Positions 6,882-59,750 of a stretch of 64,000 nt of DNA are shown piece after piece; position 1 is the stretch's first letter; every line of letters begins with the position of its first letter. The DNA comes from a virus (taxonomy: Duplodnaviria; Heunggongvirae; Uroviricota; Caudoviricetes), in the IMG/VR virus record IMGVR_UViG_3300033696_000004, positions 36,031 to 100,030 of that record; one strand, 5' to 3'. Made by a program: the position numbers and the translations under genes. Under the pieces are notes generated by a model. The model made no database searches. It was not told the DNA's origin and saw only the letters and a list, made by a program, of their open reading frames with translations.

Positions 6882-8393
6882 TTACAATCCGTTTTTGATA
6901 ATGTAGCTATTAACTATTACAAGAAGTTCGGTTCCCATTACCAATTGTCTATGTTCCTCTGACTGGGGAACATGGATTAGCTCGTAGGTTTCACCAGTAT
7001 ACACACGAATCATGTCACCCAGTATCTCGATCTTGCTGTAATTGTCTACATTATTATGGGTTTCTTGCACCTCATATACAGTAGTTTTACTATTGATACG
7101 ACGGCTCCATACTTCGAGTTCTAATGTATCTTTAGATACATGATTGATTAGTTCTTTTGGTACAATTAAGTGTGCATATTCTTGTAGTTCAGGTGGAACA
7201 CTATACACAACTTCGTGACCCATGCTAGATTTAACTGCTATCGTATAGTCGTTGTATTTGACAACTTCAGCTGCACCATCTTGTCCATCTTGTGTGATGT
7301 TAGATCTGGTTCCACTAATAACACTATCATGTGCTCCAGTTGCACCACCACCACCTCCAGCGTAAGAAGAACCAGCACCAGCAGCACCGTTACCGTTTCC
7401 ACCACCACCGTTTCCACCTCTACCAGCAAGATTTCCATTGTAAGTGCCACCATTGCCACCACCGCCACCACCGCTAAGACTACCGTTTCCACCACCTTGT
7501 CCGTTACCGTTTCCATCGGCTGCACCAGTACCGCCAGCTCCACCAGAACCGTTTCCGCATCCTCCACCGCCACCGCCACCGCCAAGTTTGATTTCACCTT
7601 TCGTTACAGCGTATTGTCTAGCACCACCACCACCACCGCCACCACCACCGCCTTGTATGTTATATGGTGAATTAATAGACCACGAAGTTGAACTACCACG
7701 CTGTAATCCAATACCACCACCACCGCCAGCAGAGCCGTTGGATTGTACATTACCGCCACGTCCACCATTACCGCCACGTCCTTGGATACGACCTCTACAG
7801 TCAAGGAAAACACTTTCGGCTTTTCCGCCCATGTTGTGACCATTGAATGCAGGAGTACCAGTTGATGTACCATACACCCATACACCCGTGTTTATAGTAA
7901 CGTTAACCTTTCCGTAAGCACCAGCACCAGCAGGAGGGTTGACGTTGTTTCTTAATACGTAGTTTGTTGCATTGCTACCAATAGTAATGTATAATTCCCA
8001 TGACTTACCACGTAGGTCATTCATAGAGATAGCACCAGATGGTTTTCCTGCTAATGATCTAACTTGTGCATCATTAAGATTGATCGATTGTGATGCTGGT
8101 CTACGCAATTCTGTATTGACCTGAGACATAGAAATTGTACCAGAAGGAAGTGTTCTGATAGAGACTGAACCTTTAAAGTCTGGATCTGTTTCTTTTTCTG
8201 GTGTAACATTATGTAGTTCCACGTATTCTGTGATTAGTTTGCGACTAATCGAACGTCTTTCCATCGTAGGTTCAATTAAGAAACGATGTCTACCTTTAGG
8301 GTATGTCAATTCGTAATAATAGCAGTTGTGGATTGGATCATAGTAAAGACCTTCGTTCTCCTTCAACCACCTAAGTTTTCTTTGTACTAACAT
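6882..8393 (-). CDS. glycine-rich repeat protein (possible late structural or adhesin-like protein)
   Basis: 503 aa and the only long minus-strand ORF. The central ~200 aa are poly-Gly/GN/GS tracts (GGGGGGGGGGARQY..., GGGGGGGGCGNGSGG...) flanked by ordinary N- and C-terminal domains. Resembles the glycine-rich motifs of T-even gp38-type adhesins. A CATAAATA (near-late-promoter) box lies upstream on the minus strand. Confidence 0.6.
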   Translation of the reverse strand: MLVQRKLRWLKENEGLYYDPIHNCYYYELTYPKGRHRFLIEPTMERRSISRKLITEYVELHNVTPEKETDPDFKGSVSIRTLPSGTISMSQVNTELRRPASQSINLNDAQVRSLAGKPSGAISMNDLRGKSWELYITIGSNATNYVLRNNVNPPAGAGAYGKVNVTINTGVWVYGTSTGTPAFNGHNMGGKAESVFLDCRGRIQGRGGNGGRGGNVQSNGSAGGGGGIGLQRGSSTSWSINSPYNIQGGGGGGGGGGARQYAVTKGEIKLGGGGGGGGCGNGSGGAGGTGAADGNGNGQGGGNGSLSGGGGGGNGGTYNGNLAGRGGNGGGGNGNGAAGAGSSYAGGGGGATGAHDSVISGTRSNITQDGQDGAAEVVKYNDYTIAVKSSMGHEVVYSVPPELQEYAHLIVPKELINHVSKDTLELEVWSRRINSKTTVYEVQETHNNVDNYSKIEILGDMIRVYTGETYELIHVPQSEEHRQLVMGTELLVIVNSYIIKNGL

Positions 8394-11065: not shown

Positions 11066-11139
11066 GCGTCACTGGTATAAGGGTTGTGCCTTAGCCTTCC
11101 AAGCTAATGATAGGAGTTCGAATCTCCTGTGACGCTCCA
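11066..11139 (+). tRNA. tRNA-Gly (UCC)
   Basis: Acceptor gcgtcac/gtgacgc, anticodon stem ttagc/gctaa with loop ctTCCaa, T arm aggag-ttcgaat-ctcct, CCA encoded. D arm is non-canonical. Confidence 0.6.
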
Positions 11140-13455: not shown

Positions 13456-13457
13456 TA

Positions 13458-13486
13458 AAAAGATCCCTTCAGGGGATCTTTTTTCG
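13458..13486 (+). terminator. rho-independent terminator
   Basis: agatcccttcaggggatct hairpin plus T run. Confidence 0.6.
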
Positions 13487-13516
13487 TATCTACAAATCAA
13501 TAAGGAATGAAAATAA

Positions 13517-13888
13517 ATGAAATCATATTTATTCAGAACATCAAAGTTAGAACATTTCATAGCAGTATGTGATGATTCTAAAAATGAAGCAACTGTAATT
13601 ACATCATCGTGTCCGACCATCACGTCGGGAGATGTAATTGACTACAATGAACTTACGCATCATGCACAAATCAGAGAGATTCCTGTTGAATATGGAACAC
13701 GTGTTGAAGGTGGTCAACACCTAAACGTTAATGTGTTAAACAAAGAAACTCTAGAAGATGCAATCATTAATCCAGATAAGTATCCTCAATTAACTATTCG
13801 GGTATCGGGTTATGCTGTTCGTTTTAATTCGTTAACATCAGAACAGAAAAATGATGTAATATCTCGTACGTTTACTAAGTCGATTTAG
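13517..13888 (+). CDS. grcA: autonomous glycyl-radical cofactor (GrcA/YfiD-like)
   Basis: 123 aa. C-terminal half is near-identical in pattern to the E. coli GrcA that I recall: [50 protein letters not shown], including the RVSGY glycine-radical motif. Confidence 0.8.
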
Positions 13889-13903
13889 TTTTGTCCATAA
13901 CTC

Positions 13904-13929
13904 CATTTATTATAGATCTATAATGAACA
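13904..13929 (+). promoter_or_regulatory. 26-bp regulatory element, copy 1 (catttattatagatctataatgaaca)
   Basis: Palindromic TATAGATCTATAAT core containing a -10-like TATAAT. The identical 26-mer recurs at 41783-41808 upstream of gp55. Followed by the perfect inverted repeat ctggttgcaTtgcaaccag (13937-13955). Confidence 0.5.
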
Positions 13930-13995
13930 AAAACTTCTGGTTGCATTGCAACCAGATTTCATAGATAATAGATTCAATCATTAAGAGGAATAACT

Positions 13996-14634
13996 ATGTT
14001 TGTAAAATCTATTACCAGAAATGAATGTGAACCATTTATTCTAGGTATTCATTATGCTAAACGTTGGTGTTCTATTAGTTACGCATTTGGATTATATCAA
14101 CCTATAGAGAATGACTTTATGGGAAGAGATGAATTAATTGGTATCGTAACCTATGGTACTCCACCAAGTTCTACATTAAAATCTGGTATTGCTGGCGATG
14201 AACATAAAGAAAAGGTTCTAGAACTTAACAGGTTATGTTTGAAATACAATCGCAAGAATGAAGCTAGTTTCTTGGTTGGAAATAGCCTTAAACTATTACC
14301 TAAGAATCGAATTGTAGTAAGCTTTGCTGACATAGAGCAAGGTCACAATGGTTGTGTATATCGTGCAACTAACTTTACTTACCATGGTTTATCTGCGAAA
14401 CGTAAAGACTGGAAGGTAAAGGGTCTAGAACACTTACATGGTATTACTATTGCGGATCAGTTTCGTGGCGTAGAGAACCGTGGTAAGGCTATTCGTGAAC
14501 ATTATGGTGATGACTTCTACATGCAAGAACGTCCACGTAAACATCGTTACATCTTTGTTACTGGTGATAAGCGTCAGAAGAAGATTTTAAAATCCGCTAT
14601 CAAATATCCAATAGAAAAATTTATCAAAGAATAG
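13996..14634 (+). CDS. putative Mom-like DNA-modification protein (acyltransferase fold), tentative
   Basis: 212 aa. Motif pattern GIHYAKRW...LIGIVTYGTP...ELNRLCL...VVSFADIEQGHNGCVYRATNFTYHG matches my memory of the phage Mu Mom family signature (HHY..., SYAD..GH.G.IY.A.N). This is recalled from memory, not a database hit. Confidence 0.4.
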   Translation: MFVKSITRNECEPFILGIHYAKRWCSISYAFGLYQPIENDFMGRDELIGIVTYGTPPSSTLKSGIAGDEHKEKVLELNRLCLKYNRKNEASFLVGNSLKLLPKNRIVVSFADIEQGHNGCVYRATNFTYHGLSAKRKDWKVKGLEHLHGITIADQFRGVENRGKAIREHYGDDFYMQERPRKHRYIFVTGDKRQKKILKSAIKYPIEKFIKE

Positions 14635-16238: not shown

Positions 16239-17078
16239 ATGATTTTTAAAACTAACGCAAATGAATTTGAAATTGAAAATAAGACATTGTTGAATACTGA
16301 CATGGTATCTATTCTTGCTCGTCAGAACAATGCAAATCGTGACCTATCATGTGGTCTAGTTGATAAGATTTCATCTTCGGTTAAAGAATGTAAATGGTGC
16401 TTCGAGTTCCTAGAAGGAAAAACACTTTACGTTGATAAATCAAACGGAGAACTTCTTTCTGGTCAGCATCGCTTGAATGCAATGGTAAATAACAATTTGC
16501 AAAGCTGGTCGGTTGTTATCCAATACGTTGATAAAGATTGGTGGCTTGTGACTAGTAATGAGAAACGTTCGTCTGTGGATAAAACGACAATGGCATCTCG
16601 TCGTAAGTTTTCTGGGAAACAAGCTGCGTGTGTAGTTGCGTGTAATGGTCAAATCAAAGCCGTGACATCTGGATATAGTACGACATCTGGTGCTTCTGGT
16701 AAGAATAAGATGACAGAAGAAGATATGGTAGTCATGTACGGAGACAGTATCGAAGAATGTTGGAATCTCATTCCAGCACTAATTCGTCAAAATGACCAAT
16801 TATGTCGCTCAATTATCCTTTTGTATATCTGTGGATATTTGACGAAATCTCAAATTAAGAGTTTGATTAATCCAGAATCACGTTTGTATAAGGCGTGTGA
16901 ATGGTTGATTAGCGAAAAAGAATATGGTTACGCTATCAAGCAACTTGCTTACGGTGTAGCATGTATCAAACACGCAATGTCAACAACACGCAACACAAAA
17001 GACTACTCCAAAATTGATGAAAAGTATAAACCGCAATATGTTAAAACTGGAAAATACATTTTTTCAGATTTTTCATAA
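16239..17078 (+). CDS. hypothetical protein, possible ParB/Srx-like nuclease domain
   Basis: 279 aa. LSGQHRLNAM resembles the ParB-N GxxR/HR motif. Weak call. Confidence 0.35.
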   Translation: MIFKTNANEFEIENKTLLNTDMVSILARQNNANRDLSCGLVDKISSSVKECKWCFEFLEGKTLYVDKSNGELLSGQHRLNAMVNNNLQSWSVVIQYVDKDWWLVTSNEKRSSVDKTTMASRRKFSGKQAACVVACNGQIKAVTSGYSTTSGASGKNKMTEEDMVVMYGDSIEECWNLIPALIRQNDQLCRSIILLYICGYLTKSQIKSLINPESRLYKACEWLISEKEYGYAIKQLAYGVACIKHAMSTTRNTKDYSKIDEKYKPQYVKTGKYIFSDFS

Positions 17079-17824: not shown

Positions 17825-17861
17825 TTGACATAATAAGTGCATGTGATATTATCACATGCAC
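17825..17861 (+). promoter_or_regulatory. nrdB promoter with overlapping 12-bp inverted repeat operator
   Basis: ttgaca 17825-17830 and tattat 17847-17852. The perfect inverted repeat gtgcatgtgata-t-tatcacatgcac (17837-17861) is centred on the -10. Confidence 0.5.
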
Positions 17862-26835: not shown

Positions 26836-27948
26836 ATGAAAATCAATGAAATGAACAATCGCCAAATTAAAGAATCTGGTCTACACACTAAAGCCGTAGT
26901 AATCGGTCGGTTTGAACCAGTAATGCACCGTGGTCATGTATCCATGATCCATAAAGCTTTAGACGTAGCAAAAGAAGTGTTTATCGTAATCGGATCTGCT
27001 AGTGCTTATCCTGATGTGAAAAACCCAATTTCTGTTGATTTGCGTCAACGTTGTATCTGGAACATCTTGCGTGATGAATTCACGGTGGAACAATGTTCTC
27101 GTATCAAAACTCGTTATGTTAATGACTACAAATACAATGACGAGAAGTGGAAAACTGAAATTCGTATGCAAGTCGGTGAACGTCGTTGGGATAACATCGC
27201 AATGATTGGATTCGAGAAAGACCAAGATTCATACTGGTTAAATGAGTTTGGTTGGACAATGATTCCAGTTGAGCCTACTATGGTAAGCTGGTTGGGTTCG
27301 AGTGTTCCAATGAGTTCTACGTTTATCCGTGATCATTGGCTACGTACTGGTGAAATCTTACTTAAAGAAATGCTACCTCAAGCATGTGTTGATTTCCTAG
27401 AGAAGTTCACGTGGATTAATGGTAAATTCAGTAAAGAGTTCGACCGTCTAAACGAAGAACGTTTGAAGTGGGACAAAGAAATCAAGAAGTTTGATGATTA
27501 CCCATACATGGAATCACTACATGGTGTATGTGCTGACTCTGTAGTATTATGCAATAATCATGTTTTGTTAATCGAACGCAAGTTTGCACCAGGAAAAGGT
27601 GCATGGGCTTTACCAGGCGGTCACAAGAATAGTGATGAAACATTCCGTTATGCTGCATTGCGTGAACTGGAAGAAGAAGTTGGTCTGAAGGTATCGCCTA
27701 AAGTAATTCGTGGTTCTATCAAAGATTCTCAATTGTTTGATGACCCTAAGCGTACTGCTGTATTCTGTAAACCTACAGTTGCTCAGTTTATTGTATTGCA
27801 ACCCGACCACGATGGTAAATTACCACGTGTTCAGGGTGCTGATGATGCTAAACGTGCATTCTGGGTTCCACTTCATGAAATTAAAGAAAACCCACAGAAG
27901 CTATTTGATGACCATTCATGCATCATTAGTTACTTCACTGGTGTTTGA
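26836..27948 (+). CDS. natV: bifunctional NMN adenylyltransferase / Nudix ADP-ribose pyrophosphatase (NatV/NadM-Nudix type)
   Basis: 370 aa. N-terminal nucleotidyltransferase motif GRFEPVMHRGH (HxGH-like) and C-terminal Nudix box GGHKNSDETFRYAALRELEEEVGL. Confidence 0.75.
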   Translation: MKINEMNNRQIKESGLHTKAVVIGRFEPVMHRGHVSMIHKALDVAKEVFIVIGSASAYPDVKNPISVDLRQRCIWNILRDEFTVEQCSRIKTRYVNDYKYNDEKWKTEIRMQVGERRWDNIAMIGFEKDQDSYWLNEFGWTMIPVEPTMVSWLGSSVPMSSTFIRDHWLRTGEILLKEMLPQACVDFLEKFTWINGKFSKEFDRLNEERLKWDKEIKKFDDYPYMESLHGVCADSVVLCNNHVLLIERKFAPGKGAWALPGGHKNSDETFRYAALRELEEEVGLKVSPKVIRGSIKDSQLFDDPKRTAVFCKPTVAQFIVLQPDHDGKLPRVQGADDAKRAFWVPLHEIKENPQKLFDDHSCIISYFTGV

Positions 27949-27951
27949 TAA

Positions 27952-27977
27952 AAGGAGACCTTCGGGTCTCCTTTTTT
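27952..27977 (+). terminator. rho-independent terminator
   Basis: ggagaccttcgggtctcc hairpin plus T run. Confidence 0.65.
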
Positions 27978-28091
27978 GATCTAAATCACGCAAATAAATG
28001 TTGATTTCAATAGTTTGCGTGGTATAATGTTTACGTTGAGTTAACCAAATAGGAGTTTTTATGTTCAACACTCAATTTAAAAGGAAATATC

Positions 28092-29300
28092 ATGCTACAA
28101 TCTATTATAGGAATCTTATTCCTCCTAGCGTTAGGATATGCGTTCTCTGAGAATCGTAATGCGATTAGCTGGAGGGCTGTAATCGGTTCATTTGCAATAC
28201 TAATGAGTATTTCCGCATTTGTACTGGGAACCGATTTCGGTGCTGATGTTCTATTAGCAGCATCGAAAGGTGTTGGTTCTGTTTTTTCCTACGGAACTGA
28301 AGGTATTAAGTTTGTATTCGGTAACCTAGTTACATTCCAAGTTGAAGGACTTGGATTCATATGGGCTTTCCAAGTACTTCCAATGATTATATTCACCGCA
28401 TCGCTCACATCATTATTATACTACTATGGTATTATGCAATGGTTCGTTCGTATTATCGGTGGCGGTCTTCAGAAACTGTTAGGTACATCCCGTGCGGAAT
28501 CAATGAGTGCAGCTGGTAACATTGTACTAGGTCAAACTGAAGCACCACTTCTAGTTCGTCCTTATCATCCAATATTAACTCGTGCTCAAATATTTGCAAT
28601 CATGGTCGGTGGTCTTGCTTCAATTGCTGGTTCTATCCTAGCTGGTCTAGCTGGAATGGGTGTTGAACTCAAGTACCTGATTATGGCGTGTTTCATGTCG
28701 GCTCCAGCTGGTTTATTGTTCGCTAAATTAATCATCCCCGAAACTGAAACGACTATCGACGAAGTTCCCGAAGAACCCGAAGAAGATAAAGCAACAAGTT
28801 TCATTGATGCAATCGCAAAGGGTGCAATGACTGGTCTAGCAATCGCTGGTATCGTTGGTGCAGTTATCATTGCATGTATCGGTATCATGGCTTTGCTTAA
28901 CGGTATACTTGGTTATGTCGGTGGATTTGTTGGTTACGCAAGTCTGTCGGTTGACACAATCCTTGGATTCGTCTTCGCTCCTATCGCATGGATGATCGGT
29001 GTTCCTTGGTCAGAAGCAATGCAAGCTGGTTCTCTGATTGGTCAAAAGATCGCAATGAATGAGTTCGTAGCTTACGCAAGCTTCGGCACAATGGAATTGT
29101 CTGCTAAGACATCTGGTATCATCACAATTGCACTATGTGGATTCGCTAACATTAGTTCGGTTGCAATGGTTGTAGGTGCTATGAGTAAGATGATACCAAC
29201 AAAAGCTGGTATCATCGCATCTCTTGGTATGAAAGTACTATTAGCTGCTACTATGGCTAACCTAATGGCTGCTACAGTCGTAGGTCTGTTCATATCATAA
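28092..29300 (+). CDS. concentrative nucleoside transporter (NupC/CNT family)
   Basis: 402 aa polytopic membrane protein. Recognisable NupC signatures: GTEGIKFVFGN, FQVLPMIIF, and SESMSAAGNIVLGQTEAPLLVRPY matching the conserved SxAxxGN(I/V)FLGQTEAPLL(I/V)RPY motif. Confidence 0.75.
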   Translation: MLQSIIGILFLLALGYAFSENRNAISWRAVIGSFAILMSISAFVLGTDFGADVLLAASKGVGSVFSYGTEGIKFVFGNLVTFQVEGLGFIWAFQVLPMIIFTASLTSLLYYYGIMQWFVRIIGGGLQKLLGTSRAESMSAAGNIVLGQTEAPLLVRPYHPILTRAQIFAIMVGGLASIAGSILAGLAGMGVELKYLIMACFMSAPAGLLFAKLIIPETETTIDEVPEEPEEDKATSFIDAIAKGAMTGLAIAGIVGAVIIACIGIMALLNGILGYVGGFVGYASLSVDTILGFVFAPIAWMIGVPWSEAMQAGSLIGQKIAMNEFVAYASFGTMELSAKTSGIITIALCGFANISSVAMVVGAMSKMIPTKAGIIASLGMKVLLAATMANLMAATVVGLFIS

Positions 29301-31402: not shown

Positions 31403-31463
31403 AAAGTAGTTGACAACATGATGGGAGGATGTCATAATCCTCCCATCAACAAAGGAGTTTATT

Positions 31464-33839: not shown

Positions 33840-33928
33840 TTGATTGACAAACCCTCTCAGTGTGTTATTATGACCACATTCCTGAGAGGGAACAAACAAA
33901 ACTTAATTAAACACTTGGGAGTCAAGTT

Positions 33929-35365
33929 ATGGAATTCTTCAATAAAAATCTAGCAGTAAGTACAGACAGCTACAAAGCATCTCACGCATGTAAATCACAA
34001 AATGAACATGTAAAAACGGTTGGTCAGTTCCCAGAAGGTACTACCCATACTTCTTATTACATCGAAGCACGTACCGAAGATGAAGAACTTGTTGCAGCTG
34101 GCATGAACTTCGTTGCTAAAGTCTTGGAGCAAGGCATCACATTAGTTAAAGTCAATCGTGCAAATCTAATCTACCGTGCTCACTTTGGTCGTGAAATCTT
34201 CAACTACGATGCTTGGGTTCGTATCGCTACTGAGTTTGGTGGTAAACTACCAATCGACATGTGGGCTGTTCCTGAAGGTACTATAATTCCTTCTAAGACA
34301 GCAATCGCAGTTATTGAAAATACCCATCCTGATTACCCATGGTTACCAGGAAATCTAGAAACATTCGCACTACGTGGTGTCTGGTATCCAACATCCGTTA
34401 CTACTAAGTCGTACCGTTGTTTGAAAGTTTTGAAAAAATACATGGATATGACTTCTGACCTAAAAGGTGAAGCATATACTACGACACTGAAAACCCGTTT
34501 ACATGACTTTGGTGCTCGTGGTGCTTCTTCTGAAGAGTCTGCTGCAATTGGTGGTCTAGCTCACCTTTATAACTTCATAGGTACTGATACCGTAGAAGCA
34601 TTGGTACTAGCTCAAGACCTATACAATGTTGCATGTGCTGGTTTCTCTATTCCTGCTCGTGAGCATAGTACAACAATCAGCTACGAAGACGAAGATGATG
34701 CATACCGCAACAGCATTGAGTTATACGGTGAAGGCTACTACTCTTGTGTAATGGACTCAACTGATTACGAAGCTGCTGTAGAACGTGTATGTTTAACCAT
34801 GAAAGATGACATCATTGCTAAGGGTGGTACGTTTGTATTCCGTCCTGACAGTGGTAGCATGATCGATAACATTATGTTCACGCTAAACATCCTTGGTAAG
34901 TACTTCGGTTACACTCGCAATAGCAAAGGCTACAAGGTTCTACATCCAAGTGTTCGTATCATCCAAGGTGATGACATTAACTCAGCTGACGACATCGAAC
35001 GTGTTCTGAGTTGGATGGAAACCCATCGTTGGGCTGCTGAGAACATTGCGTTTGGTATGGGTGGTGGTCTTCTACAGAAGGTTAACCGTGATACTCATAA
35101 GTTTGCTATGAAGCTAAGTGCTATCAAAGTGAATGGCGAATGGCGTGGTGTTCGTAAGTGTCCAAAGGGCGCAGAATGGAAAGCTAGTAAGAAAGGTCGT
35201 TTACGTACAATCCGTCGCCATGATGGTAAGTTGGAAACGGTTGACATCCTTACTAACGATACATTCGAAGGTAGTCTTGAAATGTTCAAGTTCATTCAAG
35301 ATGGTAAGTTAGGTTACACGGATACATTAGAAAACATTCGTAAGTGTATTGACAATAGCTTATAA
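33929..35365 (+). CDS. nadV: nicotinamide phosphoribosyltransferase (NAMPT/NadV)
   Basis: 478 aa. The N-terminus NLAVSTDSYKASH matches the NAMPT hallmark (..TDSYK.TH). Length and overall pattern are typical of NadV. Confidence 0.8.
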   Translation: MEFFNKNLAVSTDSYKASHACKSQNEHVKTVGQFPEGTTHTSYYIEARTEDEELVAAGMNFVAKVLEQGITLVKVNRANLIYRAHFGREIFNYDAWVRIATEFGGKLPIDMWAVPEGTIIPSKTAIAVIENTHPDYPWLPGNLETFALRGVWYPTSVTTKSYRCLKVLKKYMDMTSDLKGEAYTTTLKTRLHDFGARGASSEESAAIGGLAHLYNFIGTDTVEALVLAQDLYNVACAGFSIPAREHSTTISYEDEDDAYRNSIELYGEGYYSCVMDSTDYEAAVERVCLTMKDDIIAKGGTFVFRPDSGSMIDNIMFTLNILGKYFGYTRNSKGYKVLHPSVRIIQGDDINSADDIERVLSWMETHRWAAENIAFGMGGGLLQKVNRDTHKFAMKLSAIKVNGEWRGVRKCPKGAEWKASKKGRLRTIRRHDGKLETVDILTNDTFEGSLEMFKFIQDGKLGYTDTLENIRKCIDNSL

Positions 35366-35376
35366 TAATGTACAAT

Positions 35377-35405
35377 GGGAACTTCTTCGGAGGTTCCCAT
35401 TTTAT
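35377..35405 (+). terminator. rho-independent terminator
   Basis: gggaacttcttcggaggttccc hairpin plus T run. The same hairpin recurs at 40242-40270. Confidence 0.65.
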
Positions 35406-35417
35406 TAAGGAAATAGT

Positions 35418-35621
35418 ATGACATTTATTAATAAGAAAGCACATCGTATCCAACAGAGTATAGATCAACTAGAACGTGATAAGAACATCTGCAAATCACG
35501 TAAGAGACAATACTTGGATTATGTGGCTGAGTTGGATACTCGTGTTGAAACTATCGATTCTCGTATAGAAGAAACTAAACTTAATCTTGCTAATGTTATT
35601 AAGAGATTCAAGCATGATTAG
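35418..35621 (+). CDS. hypothetical small protein
   Basis: 67 aa coiled-coil-like ORF. Confidence 0.4.
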   Translation: MTFINKKAHRIQQSIDQLERDKNICKSRKRQYLDYVAELDTRVETIDSRIEETKLNLANVIKRFKHD

Positions 35622-35772
35622 CGATGAACGGTTTGAACGCTTCTGTTGGACTGAAAATAATCCACCTATAGTGATTCCTAAAGGCGACAAAGAAGCATTA
35701 CTAAAATGTCTAGCAGAAGCTAAGGCATTCAACGATAAGTATCGTTCTCAACCAAATAAGGAAACAGAATGA
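35587..35772 (+). CDS. hypothetical small protein
   Basis: 61 aa. Stop TGA overlaps the next ATG (ATGA). Confidence 0.35.
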   Translation: MLMLLRDSSMISDERFERFCWTENNPPIVIPKGDKEALLKCLAEAKAFNDKYRSQPNKETE

Positions 35773-35873
35773 GTATTGGTAAGTTGTTAGCGTTAATGAT
35801 TATTGCTGGTGTTAGTGGGTTTGCAATGGGATGGTTCATTGCTTCATTTTTAGATGTTACGGGTGCATTGTAA
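35769..35873 (+). CDS. 35-aa hydrophobic peptide (single transmembrane helix)
   Basis: MSIGKLLALMIIAGVSGFAMGWFIASFLDVTGAL. It is coupled ATGA to the upstream ORF and TAATG to the sirtuin gene. Not in the supplied ORF track (too short). Confidence 0.35.
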   Translation: MSIGKLLALMIIAGVSGFAMGWFIASFLDVTGAL

Positions 35874-36577
35874 TGGGTAAAATCTTTATTATTTCAGGTG
35901 CTGGTTTATCAGCTGAGTCAGGTGTTCCAACTTTCCGTGATGCAAACGGTCTATGGCATAATCATAAAATCGAAGATGTTTGTTATATCAGTACGTGGCA
36001 GCAAAACTATCACTTAGTTCACCGTTTCTATAATGAACGTCGTGTTGAAATGGGTAATGTGGAACCAAATGCAATGCATAAAGCTATTGCTGGTTGGCAG
36101 AAAGAGTTCGGTAAAGAAAATGTAATCAATGTTACAACTAACGTAGATGACTTACTAGAACGTGCTGGCGTTGAAGATGCAGTCCATCTTCATGGCGAAA
36201 TCACTAAGATTGTCGATACTCGCACTGGCGAAATAGAAGACATTGGTTACACTGCTTTCGATAGCAAATTCCTCGATACTGAAGTCCATAAACCTTACGT
36301 TGTATTCTTCGGTGAACATGCTCCAGAATATGAAACATTAAGCGCAATGACTAATTTTGACATGCAAGGTGGTGATATTGTTGTCTTCATCGGTATGAGT
36401 TTTGTAGTGGTTCCAGTTGGTATGTGTCTACCGTGGTGTCGTAATGTATCTACGATCAATATCAATCCTGATCCTAAGACTGGTTACGACCACGAATGGG
36501 ATTTACACATTGAGTCAACCGCAACGGAAGCTATCACACAACTGGATCGCATTATCCGCAATAATTTGACAAAATAA
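35873..36577 (+). CDS. Sir2-family NAD-dependent deacylase (sirtuin)
   Basis: ~234 aa from the ATG at 35873. GAGLSAESGVPTFRDANGLW is the canonical sirtuin NAD-binding motif (GAGIS..SGIPTFRG..GLW). HG motif at HLHGE. Confidence 0.75.
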   Translation: MGKIFIISGAGLSAESGVPTFRDANGLWHNHKIEDVCYISTWQQNYHLVHRFYNERRVEMGNVEPNAMHKAIAGWQKEFGKENVINVTTNVDDLLERAGVEDAVHLHGEITKIVDTRTGEIEDIGYTAFDSKFLDTEVHKPYVVFFGEHAPEYETLSAMTNFDMQGGDIVVFIGMSFVVVPVGMCLPWCRNVSTININPDPKTGYDHEWDLHIESTATEAITQLDRIIRNNLTK

Positions 36578-36631: not shown

Positions 36632-37123
36632 ATGACAGTGAAACAGTTGAAATCTGGCAAAACATACAAAGAAGCAAAGGAGACATTATATCATCAACAG
36701 AATGGTAAATGTCTCCTTTGTGATCGTAACCTAGAATCAAACATTCAAAAGAACCATTTAGACCACGACCACGCTCTAACAGGATCTGATGCTGGTAGAG
36801 TTCGTGGATTGTTATGTAATCTGTGTAATGGTACTGAAGGTATAGTCAAACATAAGTTCAATCGTTCTGGACTAGTCAGACAAGAAGTTGATTACATCAA
36901 ATGGTTGGAAAATCTAGTCATTTATCTAAAGAAAGATTATTCTAGAAATGACTTCCATCCTCAGTACATAACTGATATAATAAAGCAGTTCTCTAGATTG
37001 TCTCTAAGTGAGATGAAAAATGAAATGCACAAAAGAGGTTATACCCATGAACAATCTGACAAAAAATCAGAGTTGGTTAAAAAATTCAGCAAACAATTTC
37101 GAAAGGAGCAACACAGCTTATGA
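36632..37123 (+). CDS. 49: recombination endonuclease VII (T4 gp49-like)
   Basis: 163 aa. Strong similarity to T4 EndoVII as I recall it: NGKCLLCDRNLE...NHLDHDHALTG..AGRVRGLLCNLCNGTEG..KHKFNRSGL...DYIKWLENL. Confidence 0.85.
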   Translation: MTVKQLKSGKTYKEAKETLYHQQNGKCLLCDRNLESNIQKNHLDHDHALTGSDAGRVRGLLCNLCNGTEGIVKHKFNRSGLVRQEVDYIKWLENLVIYLKKDYSRNDFHPQYITDIIKQFSRLSLSEMKNEMHKRGYTHEQSDKKSELVKKFSKQFRKEQHSL

Positions 37124-38997
37124 ACAACTGGAAAACCAATATGATCCATGAGATCAAAGAGCTATACAATGGTACTAATAATGCAGTTAACAACGAAAAT
37201 GCAAATAAAGATGCAATGGTTATTGCAACAAAGCGTGATTTACTTGCTGGTATCGTATCCAAATCATTTGCGTTAAATGAACTATTACCAGTACACATTG
37301 CCAAAGCTCATGTTGATGGCGATTTACATTTTCACGATTTGGATTATTCACCATTGGGTAGCTACTTCAACTGTATGATCGTTGACATACCTGAGATGTT
37401 TAAAGGCTTTACTATGGGTTCTGCCGAAGTTGAGACTCCTAAGTCGATCAACACTGCAATGAATCTAGTTGCTCAGATTGTTGCTAATGTGTCGTCTAAT
37501 ACTTACGGTGGTACTACCATCCAGCAGTTAGATGAAATCATGGTTCCTTATGTTCGTTCATCTTATAACAAACACTTATCATTGTTCCTACGTGTGTACG
37601 AAGGTGATGAACGCAAAGCTGCTATCATGGCAGAAGAACTGACCGAAAAGGAAGTGTATGACGCTTGTCAATCTCTTGAATATGAATTGAATACGATTTA
37701 TTCATCTAACGGTCAAACTCCATTCGTTACTATTAACTTTGGACTTGGTACTTGTTGGGAATCTCGTTTAGTTCAAAAGGGTATTTTGCAGACTCGCATC
37801 AACGGTCTAGGTAAGACTAAGAAAACAGCTGTATTCCCTAAACTAGTTTTCACAATTAAAGATGGAGTCAACCACAAACCGTTTGACCCCAACTACGATG
37901 TCAAGCAATTGGCATTGGAGTGTGCTTCTAAACGTATGTATCCTGACATACTGAACTATGATAAACTGGTAGAGATTACTGGTGACTTTAAAGCTCCTAT
38001 GGGATGTCGTAGCTTCCTTTCGCCATGGACTGATGCAAACGGTAAGTATACTACTATGGGTCGCAACAACATGGGTGTAGTTTCTGTGAACATTCCACGC
38101 ATTGCAATCGAAGCTAATGGTGACATTGAAAAATTCTGGGAACTATTAGACCAGCGTGTTGGATTTGTCAAAGAAGCTCTTGATGTTCGGGTTGACCGTC
38201 TGCGTACAGTACAAGCAAAAGAAGCTCCTATTCTTTACATGCATGGTGCTCTTGGTGTTCGTTTACAGCCAGAAGATTACGTATTCAGTATCCTAGAAAA
38301 TGGTCGTGCATCAGTTTCTATGGGTTACATTGGTTTACACGAAGCAGCAAATGCTATGTTTGGCGATGACGAACATACGGTTGAGTCTCCACGTAAAACG
38401 CATTTTACTGTTGAAATCGTTGAGCGTTTACGTAATTACACTGACAAATGGAAGAAGGAAAGCGGTCTAGGTTACAGCTTATACTCAACTCCATCTGAAA
38501 GCCTATGTGACCGTTTCTGTAAGCTTGACAGCAAGAAGTTTGGTGTTATCGCTGGTGTGAATGATAAAGAGTACTACACTAACTCTTTCCATCAATGTGT
38601 TCTTAAAAAGACAACACCTTACGAAAAGATTGACTTCGAAGCTCGTTACCCACAATATACAAGTGGTGGTTTCATCTCTTATGTTGAATTCCCTAACGTT
38701 AAGCATAACCTGAAAGGTCTTGAAACTATTTGGGATTACACATACACTCGTTTACCATACTTTGGTACGAACACTCCAGTTGATAACTGTAGTGAATGTG
38801 GTTTCTATGGTGAATCTAAGGCTACTAAGCAGGGATTTGAATGTCCATGCTGTGGCAACAAAGATCCTCGTACATTATCGGTTACACGTCGTGTGTGTGG
38901 TTACTTGGGTAATCCTGGTGCTCGTCCTTATTGTGTTGGTAAACAAGTTGAAGTTATTGGTCGTGTCAAGCACATGTCACCACTCGGAAAACTATAA
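37120..38997 (+). CDS. nrdD: anaerobic ribonucleoside-triphosphate reductase (class III)
   Basis: 625 aa. C-terminal glycyl-radical motif RRVCGYLG and a Zn ribbon CSECG...CPCCG. Followed by the activase gene. Confidence 0.85.
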   Translation: MNNWKTNMIHEIKELYNGTNNAVNNENANKDAMVIATKRDLLAGIVSKSFALNELLPVHIAKAHVDGDLHFHDLDYSPLGSYFNCMIVDIPEMFKGFTMGSAEVETPKSINTAMNLVAQIVANVSSNTYGGTTIQQLDEIMVPYVRSSYNKHLSLFLRVYEGDERKAAIMAEELTEKEVYDACQSLEYELNTIYSSNGQTPFVTINFGLGTCWESRLVQKGILQTRINGLGKTKKTAVFPKLVFTIKDGVNHKPFDPNYDVKQLALECASKRMYPDILNYDKLVEITGDFKAPMGCRSFLSPWTDANGKYTTMGRNNMGVVSVNIPRIAIEANGDIEKFWELLDQRVGFVKEALDVRVDRLRTVQAKEAPILYMHGALGVRLQPEDYVFSILENGRASVSMGYIGLHEAANAMFGDDEHTVESPRKTHFTVEIVERLRNYTDKWKKESGLGYSLYSTPSESLCDRFCKLDSKKFGVIAGVNDKEYYTNSFHQCVLKKTTPYEKIDFEARYPQYTSGGFISYVEFPNVKHNLKGLETIWDYTYTRLPYFGTNTPVDNCSECGFYGESKATKQGFECPCCGNKDPRTLSVTRRVCGYLGNPGARPYCVGKQVEVIGRVKHMSPLGKL

Positions 38998-39104
38998 TGA
39001 CCCCATCACAAGCAGCATGGCTTCAACGTATGAAAGACATGCAACGTTTACGTAAGTTAGCACAAGAGTTACGTGAAAACAAAACTAAAAAGTAGTTTAC
39101 AACC

Positions 39105-39138
39105 AAAGGGTGATCTGTTAAGATCACCCTTTCTTTTT
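39105..39138 (+). terminator. rho-independent terminator
   Basis: aagggtgatctgttaagatcaccctt hairpin plus T run. Confidence 0.6.
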
Positions 39139-39150
39139 GGAATAAACAAA

Positions 39151-39630
39151 ATGAAATACTGCAATTATCACAAAATCTATCCGTGTGACCTATCAAACGG
39201 TGAAGGTGTACGGTTAACAATTTTCTTCTCAGGGTGTATTCATGGCTGCAAAGGATGCTATAATACGTCAACGTGGGAACCAACATCAGGAGTACAATTC
39301 AATGAAGAAACAATTAACAAACTGCTGGACGACTGTGCTAATCATACTGGGCTGTCCCTTTCAGGTGGTGACCCTCTGCATCATTGTAATCGCTGGACTG
39401 TTTATGAACTTGTCTCTCGTTTTAAACAGTTATACCCAGAAAAGGATATATGGATGTGGACTGGATTCACCCATGAAGACATCAAAGATGAACCAGAAGT
39501 TGCAAAAATTCTACAACACATTGATGTAATGATTGACGGTAAGTATGAAAGGGATTTACCCCCACGTCAAGACCAGCCGTGGCGTGGAAGTTCAAACCAA
39601 CGCTTAATTAAAATTAAAGAAATCAGTTGA
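39151..39630 (+). CDS. nrdG: anaerobic RNR activating protein (radical SAM)
   Basis: 159 aa from the ATG at 39151. CNYHKIYPCD...GCIHGCKGCYN cysteine pattern of NrdG activases. Confidence 0.8.
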   Translation: MKYCNYHKIYPCDLSNGEGVRLTIFFSGCIHGCKGCYNTSTWEPTSGVQFNEETINKLLDDCANHTGLSLSGGDPLHHCNRWTVYELVSRFKQLYPEKDIWMWTGFTHEDIKDEPEVAKILQHIDVMIDGKYERDLPPRQDQPWRGSSNQRLIKIKEIS

Positions 39631-40270: not shown

Positions 40271-41767
40271 ATGGACAGTGAAATGAAAGTAACCGCTAAC
40301 ATTCTAGAAGCAGTTCCAGCAGCTGGTAAAACCGCAGCAATGCTAAAAGATACAATCAAATCTGGGAAACCTACAATCATTGCGTCGATTTCACGCCAGC
40401 TGAATCGTCAGTCTTACGACTTCTATGTGAAGAATGGTGGGAAGAATGCAATAATTGTTGACTCCGACAACCGCAATGAGTTTGCGTCGGTATCCAAAAC
40501 AATAGAAAACTCTATTGGGGATGGAAGTCGTGTACTGTTTATCACGCATTCCGCATTATTGCAGTTTGAGAATTACGACCTATTCAAAGGTTACCAGTTG
40601 CTTATCGATGAAGTTCCCGACATGATCTCACTTGAGATGATGCGCTTTACGTATAACAGCTATAAGGTATTAGGTTACTGCGATCCCGTTGATGGTGAAG
40701 TTGGAGTACAATACAATCTAGTACTCGATGAAACTAAGCGTGAAGAACTGACTAAGATTGCAATGGATGGATTCTACAAGAATGATGACATTGCAGAAAA
40801 ATTATTGCCAGTGTATCGTAGTTTGTTGTATGGTTTTCCAGTGAAGTATCGCCTAGGTGATGATGGAATCAGTTGCGTCTATTACATTGAAGATTTAACC
40901 AACCAAAACTGGTCGGTATTCAATGGGATTACTATCGCATGTGCTAACTTTGCACAGACTTTTACTGGATACATTCTAAAGCATTGGAATAAATGGAAGT
41001 TCAAAGAAAGTCCGTTGAAATCCAACTTATTGTTTAGCGACTACAAGAATACAGATCGTATTAACGTGCATGTAATGGTAGACCAAAACTGGTCTCGTTA
41101 CGTTGCGGATAAGCAGATTGAAGGTAAGAACGTATTCAGTCACGTACAAGACCACGTCGATGGTATGTTCCCCAATAACGATTATATCTATACAATCAAT
41201 AACTACCGTTCTCGTATGGGTGGTATGCAGATTCAGTACAATCCACATGGGCTGAATTTATATTCTTCGGAAACAAACATTGTAGCTTTGTTTAGTTACA
41301 ACCCACAACCATGGCAGATACCTATTCTCAAAGAATTAGCAGTGATGCAAGGGTTAGATGAAAATGAATTGGTTGATGCGTTTATCGTATCTAAGTACTT
41401 GGAACCGATTTTCCAGTTATGTACTCGTGGTGACATGCGCAATTTCTATTCAACCGATAAAATTAATCTAGTTGTTCCAGACCAACGTGCAGCATTTTAT
41501 TTGAAGAATAACTACATGTCCAATGCTAAGGTATTTGCTCCAGTTGTAGTGATGCCCGAAGCCGAAGATAGGGTTGAACCATCACAGTTCAAGTGGAAGA
41601 ATCGTGGTGTATCTGCTGTATTAGAAATGAATCCATCAGAACGTCGTGCTTTCTATTATTTCCACAAAAAGAATGGTGTCGCTGCTGGTAAATTAGATCC
41701 AAATAATACTAAGGTATTGATGGAATCTAAAAACTGGCTAACTGAATATCGCAAGCGTAAAAATTAA
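40271..41767 (+). CDS. P-loop NTPase of unknown function
   Basis: 498 aa. Walker A-like AVPAAGKTAAM and Walker B-like LLIDEVPD. No closer assignment possible by eye. Confidence 0.45.
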   Translation: MDSEMKVTANILEAVPAAGKTAAMLKDTIKSGKPTIIASISRQLNRQSYDFYVKNGGKNAIIVDSDNRNEFASVSKTIENSIGDGSRVLFITHSALLQFENYDLFKGYQLLIDEVPDMISLEMMRFTYNSYKVLGYCDPVDGEVGVQYNLVLDETKREELTKIAMDGFYKNDDIAEKLLPVYRSLLYGFPVKYRLGDDGISCVYYIEDLTNQNWSVFNGITIACANFAQTFTGYILKHWNKWKFKESPLKSNLLFSDYKNTDRINVHVMVDQNWSRYVADKQIEGKNVFSHVQDHVDGMFPNNDYIYTINNYRSRMGGMQIQYNPHGLNLYSSETNIVALFSYNPQPWQIPILKELAVMQGLDENELVDAFIVSKYLEPIFQLCTRGDMRNFYSTDKINLVVPDQRAAFYLKNNYMSNAKVFAPVVVMPEAEDRVEPSQFKWKNRGVSAVLEMNPSERRAFYYFHKKNGVAAGKLDPNNTKVLMESKNWLTEYRKRKN

Positions 41768-41782
41768 ATTTGTTCATTTGTT

Positions 41783-41808
41783 CATTTATTATAGATCTAT
41801 AATGAACA
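41783..41808 (+). promoter_or_regulatory. 26-bp regulatory element, copy 2 (catttattatagatctataatgaaca) upstream of gp55
   Basis: Identical to 13904-13929. Preceded by the tandem ttgttcatttgttcattt and followed by the inverted repeat gttgcgtagcaac. Confidence 0.5.
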
Positions 41809-41916
41809 ATTTGTCGTTACACGACGTTGCGTAGCAACTTATCTTACTGTTGTCAAGTAAAATTGTTTATAATCTCCGTTATTGTGGTAGAATACTTCTA
41901 AGAACTGAAGAGGTAT

Positions 41917-46328: not shown

Positions 46329-46407
46329 AATAACTGTTTACAAACGTAGTTAGGGATGTATAATAAGGCATCCCAAATAAACCAACATACTGATTTGAAA
46401 AGGTAAA

Positions 46408-51881: not shown

Positions 51882-52010
51882 AAATAGTTTAGGGGAAAGT
51901 TTACTTTCCCCTATTTCGTGTTATTATACATACATCCGAAACGTGATGTGAATTATAAATTATTAATAGAATGAGGAAATTAATCTAATGAAATCATAGG
52001 AATCTAATAA

Positions 52011-55562: not shown

Positions 55563-55624
55563 TTGTTGACAACTAAGATTTTTATGTTATCATACCCTCA
55601 TTAGTTAATAGTGAGGGTATTTTT

Positions 55625-58913: not shown

Positions 58914-59750
58914 ATGAAATACGAAGGTGTAATTGGTTATACTGGGAACAAATCTAAACTTATCCCAATGCTTAATGACCTGTTTGATAAGTCTGGTTGT
59001 GATCGTCTAGTAGACTGCTGTTCTGGCGGTTTATCGGTGACATTGCATTCAAATTTCAATACAGTATTATCAAATGATGTTAGTAAGCCTATCGTGGACA
59101 TGTATAAGTTCATGGAATCTCGTAGCTATGATTATTGGTCGAAATGGGTCAATAACATGATTTCATCGTGGAAATTGAGCAACACCAATAAAGATGCTTA
59201 CTTACTATTGCGTGACATGCTGAATGACGCAATCAAACGCAACACAATCCGTCGTCACATTTTATTATACACTGCACATTGTTATTCATTTAGTAACATG
59301 ATACGATTCAACAATAGTGGACATTTTGATGTTCCATTTGGTCAACGTCGTTTCAATAAGAACACTGATAAGAAACTTAAACAATTCTTTGACATTATCG
59401 AAACCAAAGACATTACATTCAGCAACGAAAGCTTTACAAATTTAGATATCAAAGATAACGACTTGGTATACATTGACCCACCATATCTGATCACCGAAGC
59501 TGTCTACAATAAAGGTTGGACGGAAGAATGGGATAAAATCATGATGACATGGCTTGACATGTTGAATGTTCGTGGTGTAAAATTCGTGATGTCCAATGTG
59601 ACACACCATCGTGGTAAAATTAATCAGAAATTGATTGACTGGTCTACGAAGTATAATGTACACTCTAAAGACCATAAGTATGTCTCAAATGCTTACCAAG
59701 CTAAAGATATGAATAAAAAGACCATTGAGGTCATGATTTATAATTTTTAA
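58914..59750 (+). CDS. dam: DNA N6-adenine methyltransferase (Dam)
   Basis: 278 aa. Colinear with T4 Dam as recalled (IGYTGNK..L.P.L, VD.C.GGLSV.L, NDVSKPIV.MYK, LLYT.H...FSNMIRFN..G.F..PFG.R..NKN...K, VYIDPPYLIT.A.YNK, GVKF..SNV..H.GK.N..L..WS.KYNV). DPPY catalytic motif. Confidence 0.85.
   Translation: MKYEGVIGYTGNKSKLIPMLNDLFDKSGCDRLVDCCSGGLSVTLHSNFNTVLSNDVSKPIVDMYKFMESRSYDYWSKWVNNMISSWKLSNTNKDAYLLLRDMLNDAIKRNTIRRHILLYTAHCYSFSNMIRFNNSGHFDVPFGQRRFNKNTDKKLKQFFDIIETKDITFSNESFTNLDIKDNDLVYIDPPYLITEAVYNKGWTEEWDKIMMTWLDMLNVRGVKFVMSNVTHHRGKINQKLIDWSTKYNVHSKDHKYVSNAYQAKDMNKKTIEVMIYNF

Follow-up and report, generated by a model that had tools for sequence, protein, structure and literature searches.

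The question raised by this locus is whether a short DNA element couples a DNA-modification gene to the switch towards late transcription. The stretch analysed here (the window, 64,000 nucleotides, positions 28491-92490 of a 128.6-kb ENA metagenomic scaffold of which 81.6 kb was seen) comes from an uncultured phage that, judged from its proteins, branches deeply within the T4 family: no GenBank phage has a DNA polymerase more than 55% or a gp55 more than 49% identical to its own. Both mom, encoding an adenine-modification enzyme, and gp55, encoding the late-transcription sigma factor, are preceded in the window by the 26-mer CATTTATTATAGATCTATAATGAACA, which the original prediction suggested to be a common promoter or operator, or a middle/late timing signal, tying Mom to the late switch. 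The repeat itself was found as described, exactly twice and on the + strand both times (13904-13929 and 41783-41808). It is the invariant core of a larger quasi-palindrome, here named element E, which also stands before genes other than these two and is probably a generic form of punctuation between genes, not a Mom-gp55 switch.

With up to three mismatches allowed, no match to the 26-mer beyond the two copies was found in the window, and among dinucleotide shuffles of the window a 26-mer match arose in 0 out of 100. An AT-rich sequence on a metagenomic scaffold might suggest that the repeat arose by chance or through faulty assembly; the shuffles leave this practically no probability, and the explanation is refuted by the fact that both copies are identical in independent assemblies of other ENA samples and that E is also present in a second phage. 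The element common to both sites is genuine and is under constraint. Three further copies (L001, L002 and L004) lie on two IMG/VR contigs of metagenome 3300033696, of which 28.4 kb was retrieved; together with copy 1 (W1, before mom) and copy 2 (W2, before gp55) of the window, the sample comprises five copies from two uncultured T4-like phages, whose retrieved regions have no gene in common. Alignment of the five copies gave the consensus TTTGTTCAT-N6-ATTTATTATAGATCTATAATGAACAA, an AT-rich quasi-palindrome of about 45 nt with the inverted repeats TTTTGTTCAT and ATGAACAAAA as outer arms, the perfect 16-nt palindrome ATTATAGATCTATAAT as inner part and an asymmetric 12-nt insert in the left half. 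The inner palindrome corresponds to the palindromic core with a -10-like hexamer that had been pointed out before; it occupies 41788-41803 in copy 2, and TATAAT is read on the + strand at 13919-13924 in copy 1 and at 41798-41803 in copy 2. Ungapped similarity of the two window copies extends over 46 nt at 85% (13885-13930 versus 41764-41809). A 22-nt core is constant in all five copies, and nearly all variation falls in 6 nt that fold as an internal loop. GATC is depleted in the phage, at 0.54-0.64 of expectation, and forms the exact centre of E. Comparison of the E region with the Rfam covariance models gave no match (best E-value 0.15, far below the gathering score). A peptide-coding function was rejected: the ATG in TATAATGAAC opens reading frames of 3 to about 46 codons (translated by eye), which lack a Shine-Dalgarno (SD) sequence and conservation.

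The gene that follows in the direction of transcription differs for each copy, namely mom (W1), gp55 (W2), uvsY (L004; Pfam UvsY, 6e-15), gp14 (L002) and a cluster of small early-type open reading frames (ORFs; L001). Moreover, only three of the five copies are oriented along the genes: the copy between gp13 and gp14 and the one before the early gene cluster are inverted, and in both of these the left flank of E abuts the TTGACT -35 of an ordinary promoter. The claim of a co-regulation specific to Mom and the late switch could not be upheld in view of these additional settings and of the two inverted copies, and a Mom/gp55-specific operator or promoter is not favoured; a shared timing gate before mom and gp55, built from attenuating hairpins or from the site of a putative binding factor, may be present. 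In four of the copies (W1, W2, L004 and L002) the cassette formed by E and its neighbouring hairpins begins 0-3 nt past a stop codon. At the gp13|gp14 junction, only a few bases separate the genes in 7 of 8 related T4-like phages, as compared to 225 nt with the cassette and no ORF in L002/L075. Similarly, the spacer between gp55 and the gene for a 498-aa protein upstream of it, whose homologue also adjoins gp55 in Aeromonas phage ZPAH1 (42% identity), measures 152 nt in the window and 54 nt in ZPAH1. These comparisons indicate that the cassette behaves as inserted intergenic DNA that is not specific to mom or gp55. In the PX29-like Aeromonas phage L085 a different ORF (~1240-1500), with a CxxC...HxxxH zinc-finger-like end, is inserted at gp13|gp14, and this junction may be an insertion hot spot.

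Beyond these five copies E was not found: a profile search (nhmmer) over the 81.6 kb detected no degenerate copies in the phage itself, blastn with word size 11 detected none in GenBank phages, and scans of JGI metagenome contigs and GTDB genomes gave no genuine copy. IMG/VR was scanned in full with exact patterns (22-mer, 18-mer, left half, right half and a palindrome of the L182 type described below), which returned only the three genuine copies, all from metagenome 3300033696. Further matches (L003, L005, L089-L098 and L099-L103) were rejected as chance occurrences in coding regions or unrelated DNA.

In all five copies E is accompanied, on its ATGAACAA side and at a distance of 4-30 nt, by one or two short G+C hairpins, irrespective of its orientation towards the genes, and E with its hairpins makes up an intergenic cassette of 70-100 nt. 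The original prediction placed a perfect inverted repeat within about 10 bp of each copy. For copy 1 this is correct, as a perfect hairpin follows 6-7 nt on; for copy 2 the repeat that had been quoted, GTTGCGTAGCAAC (41826-41838), lies 17 nt on, and another one that had been overlooked, GTCGTTACACGAC (41813-41825), begins 4 nt past the 26-mer. W1, L004 and L002 have the same type of stem-loop, TCTGG-nnGC-wTT-GCnn-CCAGA, with a 9-bp helix that is 100% paired and shows two compensatory pairs among the three sequences. The copy next to E is the sole stem-loop of this type in the 81.6 kb of scaffold, and an IMG/VR scan for it yielded one other perfect hairpin, in an unrelated giant-virus contig. 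When E and its stem-loop are folded together, the result is more stable than with shuffled sequence (z = -3.2 to -6.3). The window also contains two other exact repeats between genes, one of 31 nt (16128-16158/17080-17110) and one of 27 nt (35377-35403/40242-40268), both of which are canonical terminators with a UUCG loop; exact duplication of intergenic hairpins is thus habitual in this genome and not peculiar to the mom/gp55 pair. The 31-nt terminators flank an ORF of 279 aa (16239-17078), a layout that has been proposed for exchangeable cassettes flanked by promoter-early stem-loops (PeSLs). Additionally, a 44-nt repeat with 80% identity (20934-20977/29371-29414) covers -10, start region and SD (TAATCnnCTATACTTCTCACATCAAC...) and hence represents a promoter-leader common to two unrelated genes.

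Our preferred interpretation, tentative as it is, is that the E cassette belongs, as a variant specific to its lineage, to the repeated hairpin/promoter cassettes found in T4-type genomes, and that it would provide structured punctuation between genes as well as homology for recombination. Cassettes of this general kind have been documented in T4-type phages (Comeau et al., 2014, PMC4122927). The interpretation is supported by the anatomy of E, the confinement of variation to a loop, the covariation in the stem-loop and its folding together with E, the other duplicated hairpins of the genome, the occurrence of both orientations, the behaviour as inserted DNA at junctions and the hairpins of sister phages presented below. 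The cassette would occupy the space from the stop codon of one gene to a point upstream of the promoter (gp55, uvsY) or the ribosome-binding site (mom) of the next. The arms would pair in read-through RNA, perhaps in supercoiled DNA too, to form a two-tier hairpin that is followed by a second hairpin; this structure might mark or stabilise the 3' end of the upstream message and attenuate read-through into the next unit, and the copies might supply portable homology for recombination. Since E is palindromic, either orientation would work. As for the TATAAT in E, it most likely arises simply from the TATA-GATC-TATA palindrome, or is at best a weak start independent of a -35.

Several observations weigh against this interpretation. 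E alone folds weakly (copy 1 as DNA: -1.9 kcal/mol, z = -0.4), and the outer stem of copy 1 contains a C·A mismatch on the sense strand. After the hairpins of copies 1 and 2 no good U-run is found in the sense direction, which makes classical intrinsic termination weak. The apical GATC and the CATTTA segment are constant despite the fact that pairing does not need them, and the identical tract that copy 1 shares with L001 of the other phage is longer (35 nt) than the one it shares with copy 2 (27 nt); both findings point to sequence-specific recognition and not to structure alone. The copy density, 2 in 81.6 kb or approximately 1 per 30-40 kb, is far below that of PeSL or repetitive extragenic palindrome (REP) families. 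Finally, no other recognisable mom promoter lies between the terminator at 13457-13487 and the start of mom, which means that the TATAAT in E could matter for mom, unless mom is read through from upstream.

The latter point leads back to the original suggestion that E is a -35-independent promoter for mom and gp55, acting through its TATAAT, perhaps as a middle-type class, with the next hairpin as the 5' end of the message. Besides the lack of another promoter for mom, it could be argued that the hexamer matches the -10 consensus, that the gAACAaAaA following it resembles the start region of the promoters of this phage, that the -10/start half on the + strand of E scores in the top 0.05% of window positions, and that the order of E and stem-loop is fixed in all copies. 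Furthermore, AsiA is encoded by the phage and no MotA domain was seen in the Pfam listings of the 81.6 kb, a combination known from KVP40, nt-1, Aeh1 and phage 65, where the middle-promoter situation is open (Hinton, 2010, PMC2988021). The sequence of E itself does not bear this out. A sigma70 -35 (TTGACA or TTTACW) is absent from the positions 16-18 bp upstream of the TATAAT, where CATAAC, CATTTG, CATTAC or CATTTA is found, in the only variable part of E; an extended -10 is likewise missing, as ATC and not TGn precedes the TATAAT, and TGn occurs in 14 of 23 promoters of the window. With a weight matrix of the -10/start half, the + strand of E ranks 19-20 among 24 (the 23 reference promoters plus E) and the - strand below all references. 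No MotA box, (a/t)(a/t)(a/t)TGCTT(t/c)A, is located 11-13 bp upstream of the -10 of E and no TGCTT at -30; TTGTTCAT lies 20 bp from TATAAT (12 bp for the extra box of copy 2 only) and 9 bp from TATTAT. The T4 late promoter TATAAATA is not found in E either, the + strand reading TATAATGA and the - strand TATAATAA. On spacing and motifs, E was ruled out as a promoter of the standard sigma70, MotA or late type. The -13C in TCTATAAT may recall the -10 elements preferred by sigmaS. In T4, gp55 and uvsY belong to the prereplicative (pre-late) genes, as would suit a middle-type class; here, the canonical promoters of both lie downstream of E, that of uvsY (GTTTAC...TATACT) past the cassette and that of gp55 conserved where sister phages carry other sequences in place of E. 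Moreover, the + strand of E is antisense to the flanking genes in L001 and L002, the sister-phage equivalents have no good -10, and one copy per 30-40 kb is far too rare for a general class of middle promoters. A common promoter for mom and gp55 is therefore a distinctly unlikely function of E.

Promoters of the window are often situated inside inverted repeats, 7 of them being enclosed at the -10 and 5 at the -35 (e.g., 17837-17861, 31419-31448, 33852-33890, 46353-46374, 51890-51913 and 55592-55620). The 3' arm of the hairpin at 55592-55620 holds the SD of a gene starting at 55625, which recalls the design of T4 e and soc, where translation is limited to transcripts begun inside the hairpin. 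Extended -10 promoters are relatively resistant to AsiA, and the TGn promoters of the window may keep prereplicative genes on despite AsiA.

How the gp55 site evolves was followed in two sister phages, L181 and L182, recovered through gp55 homologues. Their gp55 proteins are 85% and 67%, and the nucleotide sequences 73% and approximately 70%, identical to the window, and the gp55 promoter is kept in all three. At the position of E copy 2, L181 carries a small inner hairpin between the arms TTTTGGTAGTTA and TAACTACTAAAA, followed by the hairpin CAAGGAAC-TTT-GTTCCTTG, while L182 has the arms TTTATTAAT and ATTAATAAA around the perfect 16-nt palindrome CTATAAGATCTTATAG, which is centred on AGATCT as in E. 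The sequences differ and the two-tier AT-rich hairpin shape is the same, indicating that structure was kept at the gp55 site as the sequence turned over; by contrast, E is identical between the window phage and the phage of metagenome 3300033696. Other relatives in IMG/VR, sought via gp55 and gp14, were too distant for an intergenic comparison (best matches 44% and 53% identical). Upstream of gp55, TTGTCAAGTwAAAT(T)GTTTATAAT is conserved between the window (41846-41873) and L182 (~82-110); only 11-12 bp separate the TTGTCA in it from a TATAAT, less than sigma70 spacing requires.

An operator function of E stays in play through the constancy of bases, the central GATC among them, that are not needed for pairing. 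A dimeric protein of phage or host that binds DNA in a sequence-specific manner could recognise E, which would act as an operator or insulator that gates the adjacent units and is possibly Dam-sensitive through its GATC. This is in line with 26-27 nt being constant in five copies from two phages, GATC apex and CATTTA included, next to 6 nt that are free to vary, as well as with the dyad symmetry of E and its tolerance of either orientation. Additionally, the AGATCT-centred perfect palindrome before gp55 of L182 differs from that of E symmetrically, as expected under co-evolution of protein and site, the palindrome overlaps -10-like hexamers on both strands, and a Dam-type methyltransferase is encoded by the phage. 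Against such a site, L181, the closest sister, has neither E nor a GATC palindrome at the gp55 site, no candidate binding protein was identified near any copy, and the information in 26 constant nt exceeds by far what a regulator would require in a ~230-kb genome. The centre of E lies at about -70, -88 and -105 relative to the nearest downstream promoter starts, distances that are inconsistent in helical phasing, and for this reason a class-I activator site was rejected. The consensus sites of Fur, ArgR, CRP, IHF, sigma54 and sigmaE do not seem to fit E. Overall, we consider a protein-recognised site unlikely, if less so than a promoter. A narrower form of this idea, according to which E is the site of a putative MotA analogue or repressor that gates a few switch genes (late sigma gp55, recombination mediator uvsY and anti-restriction enzyme Mom) in T4-like phages having AsiA and no recognisable MotA, with GATC and Dam as an epigenetic timer, is very improbable; if true, expression would vary with how far the DNA is methylated and replicated.

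The behaviour of the cassette as inserted DNA could also mean that E and its stem-loop have no part in regulation and are a selfish or relic insertion, such as a miniature mobile element or the scar of free-standing homing-endonuclease or cargo cassettes that came and went at intergenic hot spots. The additional DNA at gp13|gp14 contains no ORF, and the same junction holds another ORF in L085; mom, rare in T4-like phages, is probable acquired cargo; both orientations occur; the sub-types of E are common to both phages and do not cluster by genome; and occupancy of the gp55 site has turned over among sister phages. Against this, variation is limited to 6 nt beside 26 constant nt, which speaks for purifying selection and not for recent copying alone, the stem-loop shows compensatory changes, and a similar structure is kept at the gp55 site in three lineages. 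In addition, no target-site duplications were seen, and the Pfam listings contain no transposase, RAYT or nearby endonuclease. An insertion devoid of function is considered slightly less probable than a promoter. E as a gix-like inversion site was rejected, given that gp13 would be parted from gp14 if the DNA between the two inverted copies of contig 000007 were flipped. The coordinates of the features discussed are compiled in Table 1.

Table 1. Element E, its hairpins and the genes and promoter discussed in the text; positions refer to the window unless stated otherwise.
Feature	Position	Strand	Basis or remark
GrcA-like autonomous glycyl-radical cofactor, 123 aa	13517-13888	+	Stop codon abuts E copy 1
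E copy 1 (W1), ~45 nt, TTTTGTCCAT-AACTCC-ATTTATTATAGATCTATAATGAACAAAAA	13889-13933	+	1 nt past the GrcA-like stop codon
Exact repeat, 27 nt, includes the 26-mer	13904-13930 = 41783-41809	+	Identity comparison
Perfect palindrome ATTATAGATCTATAAT, central GATC/AGATCT	13909-13924		TATAAT on both strands
Copy 1 stem-loop TCTGGTTGC-ATT-GCAACCAGA; with outer T/A pair (T)CTGGTTGC-ATT-GCAACCAG(A)	13936-13956		
Mom-family DNA adenine-modification enzyme, 212 aa	13996-14634	+	Pfam PF25680, phrog_1384, 8bv8
498-aa gene upstream of gp55	40271-41767	+	phrog_2467
E copy 2 (W2), left arm with tandem TTGTTCAT TTGTTCAT	41768-41811	+	Directly after the stop of the 498-aa gene
Copy 2, two adjacent 5-bp hairpins, GTCGT-TAC-ACGAC and GTTGC-GTA-GCAAC	41813-41838		
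Predicted sigma70-type promoter of gp55, extended -10, TTTATA-N16-TGgTAGAAT	41866-41893	+	Downstream of E
gp55, late-transcription sigma factor, 179 aa	41920-42459	+	phrog_234
Dam-type (D12 class) N6-adenine methyltransferase	58914-59750		Pfam PF02086, 3e-33
AsiA	L074 19470-19820 = scaffold 98361-98711 (outside the window)		Pfam PF09010, 4e-26

Regarding the two genes themselves, both assignments could be confirmed. That of gp55 is based on phrog_234 at 7e-50, a weak match to Sigma70_r2 and the gp47-gp46-gp45-gp44-gp62-regA-gp43 synteny that follows. For Mom, which had been named from a motif pattern, the profile search gave Pfam PF25680 at 3e-35 (122.2 bits versus a cut-off of 27.1) and phrog_1384 at 5e-48; the PF25680 match is near full length, residues 2-205 aligning to profile positions 3-201 of 202, and the ORF starts at 13996, as in the range that the original prediction proposed for this search. 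In a phmmer alignment to the Mu Mom structure (PDB 8bv8, E = 4e-6), H58, Y59, R111, S124, D149 and Y159 are conserved, the matching columns being HY, R of ELNR, S, D of SFAD, and Y. In Mu Mom, R111 and S124 are catalytic and essential, H58, Y59, D149 and Y159 are essential or important, and the R151A variant is inactive (Silva et al., 2026, PMC13219725). R151 is not conserved, the aligned residue being E/Q (ADIEQGH versus ADERCGR) with a His three residues on, in a part where the pairwise alignment is uncertain. The region of the HTH-like insertion in the GNAT fold (Mu ~175-209), which is needed for activity, was aligned at ~150-198 of the query with low similarity, W181 standing opposite His. 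Mu Mom is a tRNA-dependent adenine N6 modifier that uses Gly-tRNAGly as co-substrate (Silva et al., 2026, PMC13219725), and from the assignment N6-carbamoylmethyl-adenine would be expected in the DNA of the phage. One of the 18 tRNA genes of the phage encodes a tRNA-Gly (anticodon TCC, 11066-11139), and its presence beside mom in the same genome may have a functional meaning or be a coincidence. Other groups of phages commonly have Mom homologues; among the matches listed, the cyanophage S-SSM6a (31% identity) is the only T4-like carrier and a Roseobacter phage (44%) the closest match among GenBank phages.

The gene upstream of copy 1, grcA, has no adjacent mom in ZPAH1. It is located approximately 25 kb upstream of nrdD-nrdG (37120-39630) in the window, and directly after nrdG in ZPAH1, where nrdA/nrdB lie upstream of nrdD; this points to a rearrangement in the lineage of the window, with E copies near both regions. 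The possibility that copies 1 and 2 are the ends of a translocated 27.9-kb block was rejected, since ZPAH1 synteny shows grcA to be displaced and a simple E-to-E exchange does not explain the arrangement. Three low-coverage ENA contigs with grcA (L109, L111 and L110) end inside the 107-nt grcA-mom spacer, two of them 3-5 nt past the E core. Population polymorphism was dropped as the reason because contigs with identical ends elsewhere suggest that two of the assemblies have reads in common, and because the genes downstream do occur in the samples concerned; a dip in coverage or a variant junction at copy 1 is possible. Accessory genes are found at 6882-8393 (- strand), 26836-29300 and 33929-36577. 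One of them codes, on the opposite strand, for a gp38-like adhesin that has Gly-rich repeats, and others for a NUDIX protein, a nucleoside transporter, NAMPT and SIR2; anti-defence genes of the Acb1-like and Tad2-like kinds were located just beyond the window (L070 2864-3349 and L074 18611-18946).

Among known systems, the closest resemblance is to PeSLs and the corresponding promoter-middle stem-loops (PmSLs), which, like E, are short repeated intergenic stem-loop cassettes with promoter-like hexamers (Arbiol et al., 2010, PMC2839356; Comeau et al., 2014, PMC4122927). Like E, PeSLs lie between a stop codon and the next promoter or SD and are tied to indels and cargo genes, and they have been proposed to be exchanged by recombination (PMC2839356; PMC4122927). 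In copy 2 and L004, the order of hairpins, sigma70 promoter, SD and ATG is that of a PeSL with E added in front; copy 1 differs in that no promoter was detected at scan level between stem-loop and mom. PeSLs consist of G+C stem-loop terminators with a full -35/-10 promoter and occur in tens per genome with only a consensus in common, whereas E is an AT-rich 45-nt quasi-palindrome with 26-27 constant nt, no -35, about one copy per 30-40 kb and both orientations. Many copies in hyperplastic regions, a trait of PeSLs, are not seen for E (2 in 81.6 kb, 3 on two IMG/VR contigs), unlike insertion or replacement between relatives, which is evident from the 225 nt at gp13|gp14, the absence or replacement of E in L181 and L182 and the absence of mom beside grcA in ZPAH1. 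E is thus a distinct AT-rich and strongly sequence-constrained form of cassette, the described PeSL forms being solely G+C stem-loops plus full promoter (PMC2839356; PMC4122927).

Bacterial REP elements and their BIME arrangements share with E the imperfect palindrome of ~35-45 nt, the intergenic position just past stop codons in either orientation and the lineage-specific sequence; the roles proposed for them are those of a 3' hairpin in RNA or a binding site for proteins, and of a substrate for recombination. They are chromosomal, G+C-rich, present in hundreds of copies and RAYT-linked, whereas E is of low copy number and no RAYT/TnpA domain appears in the Pfam listings. In the T4 e, soc and I-TevI promoters the -10 lies inside an inverted repeat, and the next gene has its ribosome-binding site sequestered in the hairpin. 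With E they have in common the -10 in an inverted repeat and a whole hairpin that forms only in read-through RNA and not in RNA begun inside; in contrast to them, E is located 60-110 nt upstream of start codons and leaves the SD untouched. Phage T7 RNase III signals, which punctuate polycistronic RNA, are, like E, repeated intergenic hairpins of ~45-60 nt with an internal loop and related sequences. The helices of E are short (8-10 bp plus 6-8 bp) and AU-rich by comparison, and RNase III is not known to be a major player in T4-type phages.

Control of Mu mom involves Dam-methylated GATC sites and OxyR, the activator C acting on a -35-poor promoter, and translational activation by Com. The region before mom in the window is similarly -35-poor, with dyad symmetry and GATC before mom and a leader hairpin, but contains one GATC instead of a cluster of three and no ORF corresponding to com between grcA and mom. 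Moreover, the stem-loop of copy 1 ends 27 nt before the mom SD and does not cover it, the phage type is unrelated to Mu, and E is also found before genes other than mom.

Hairpin/promoter cassettes are thought to drive gene timing and the modular shuffling of genes in T4-type phages. If E is recognised by a protein, it could bear on what, if anything, replaces MotA in phages that possess AsiA and lack MotA, a question raised by Hinton (2010, PMC2988021). If E serves as punctuation only, the PeSL picture would come to include a new clade, and E would be a marker for the exchange of cassettes, including the acquisition of Mom, which is rare in T4-like phages.

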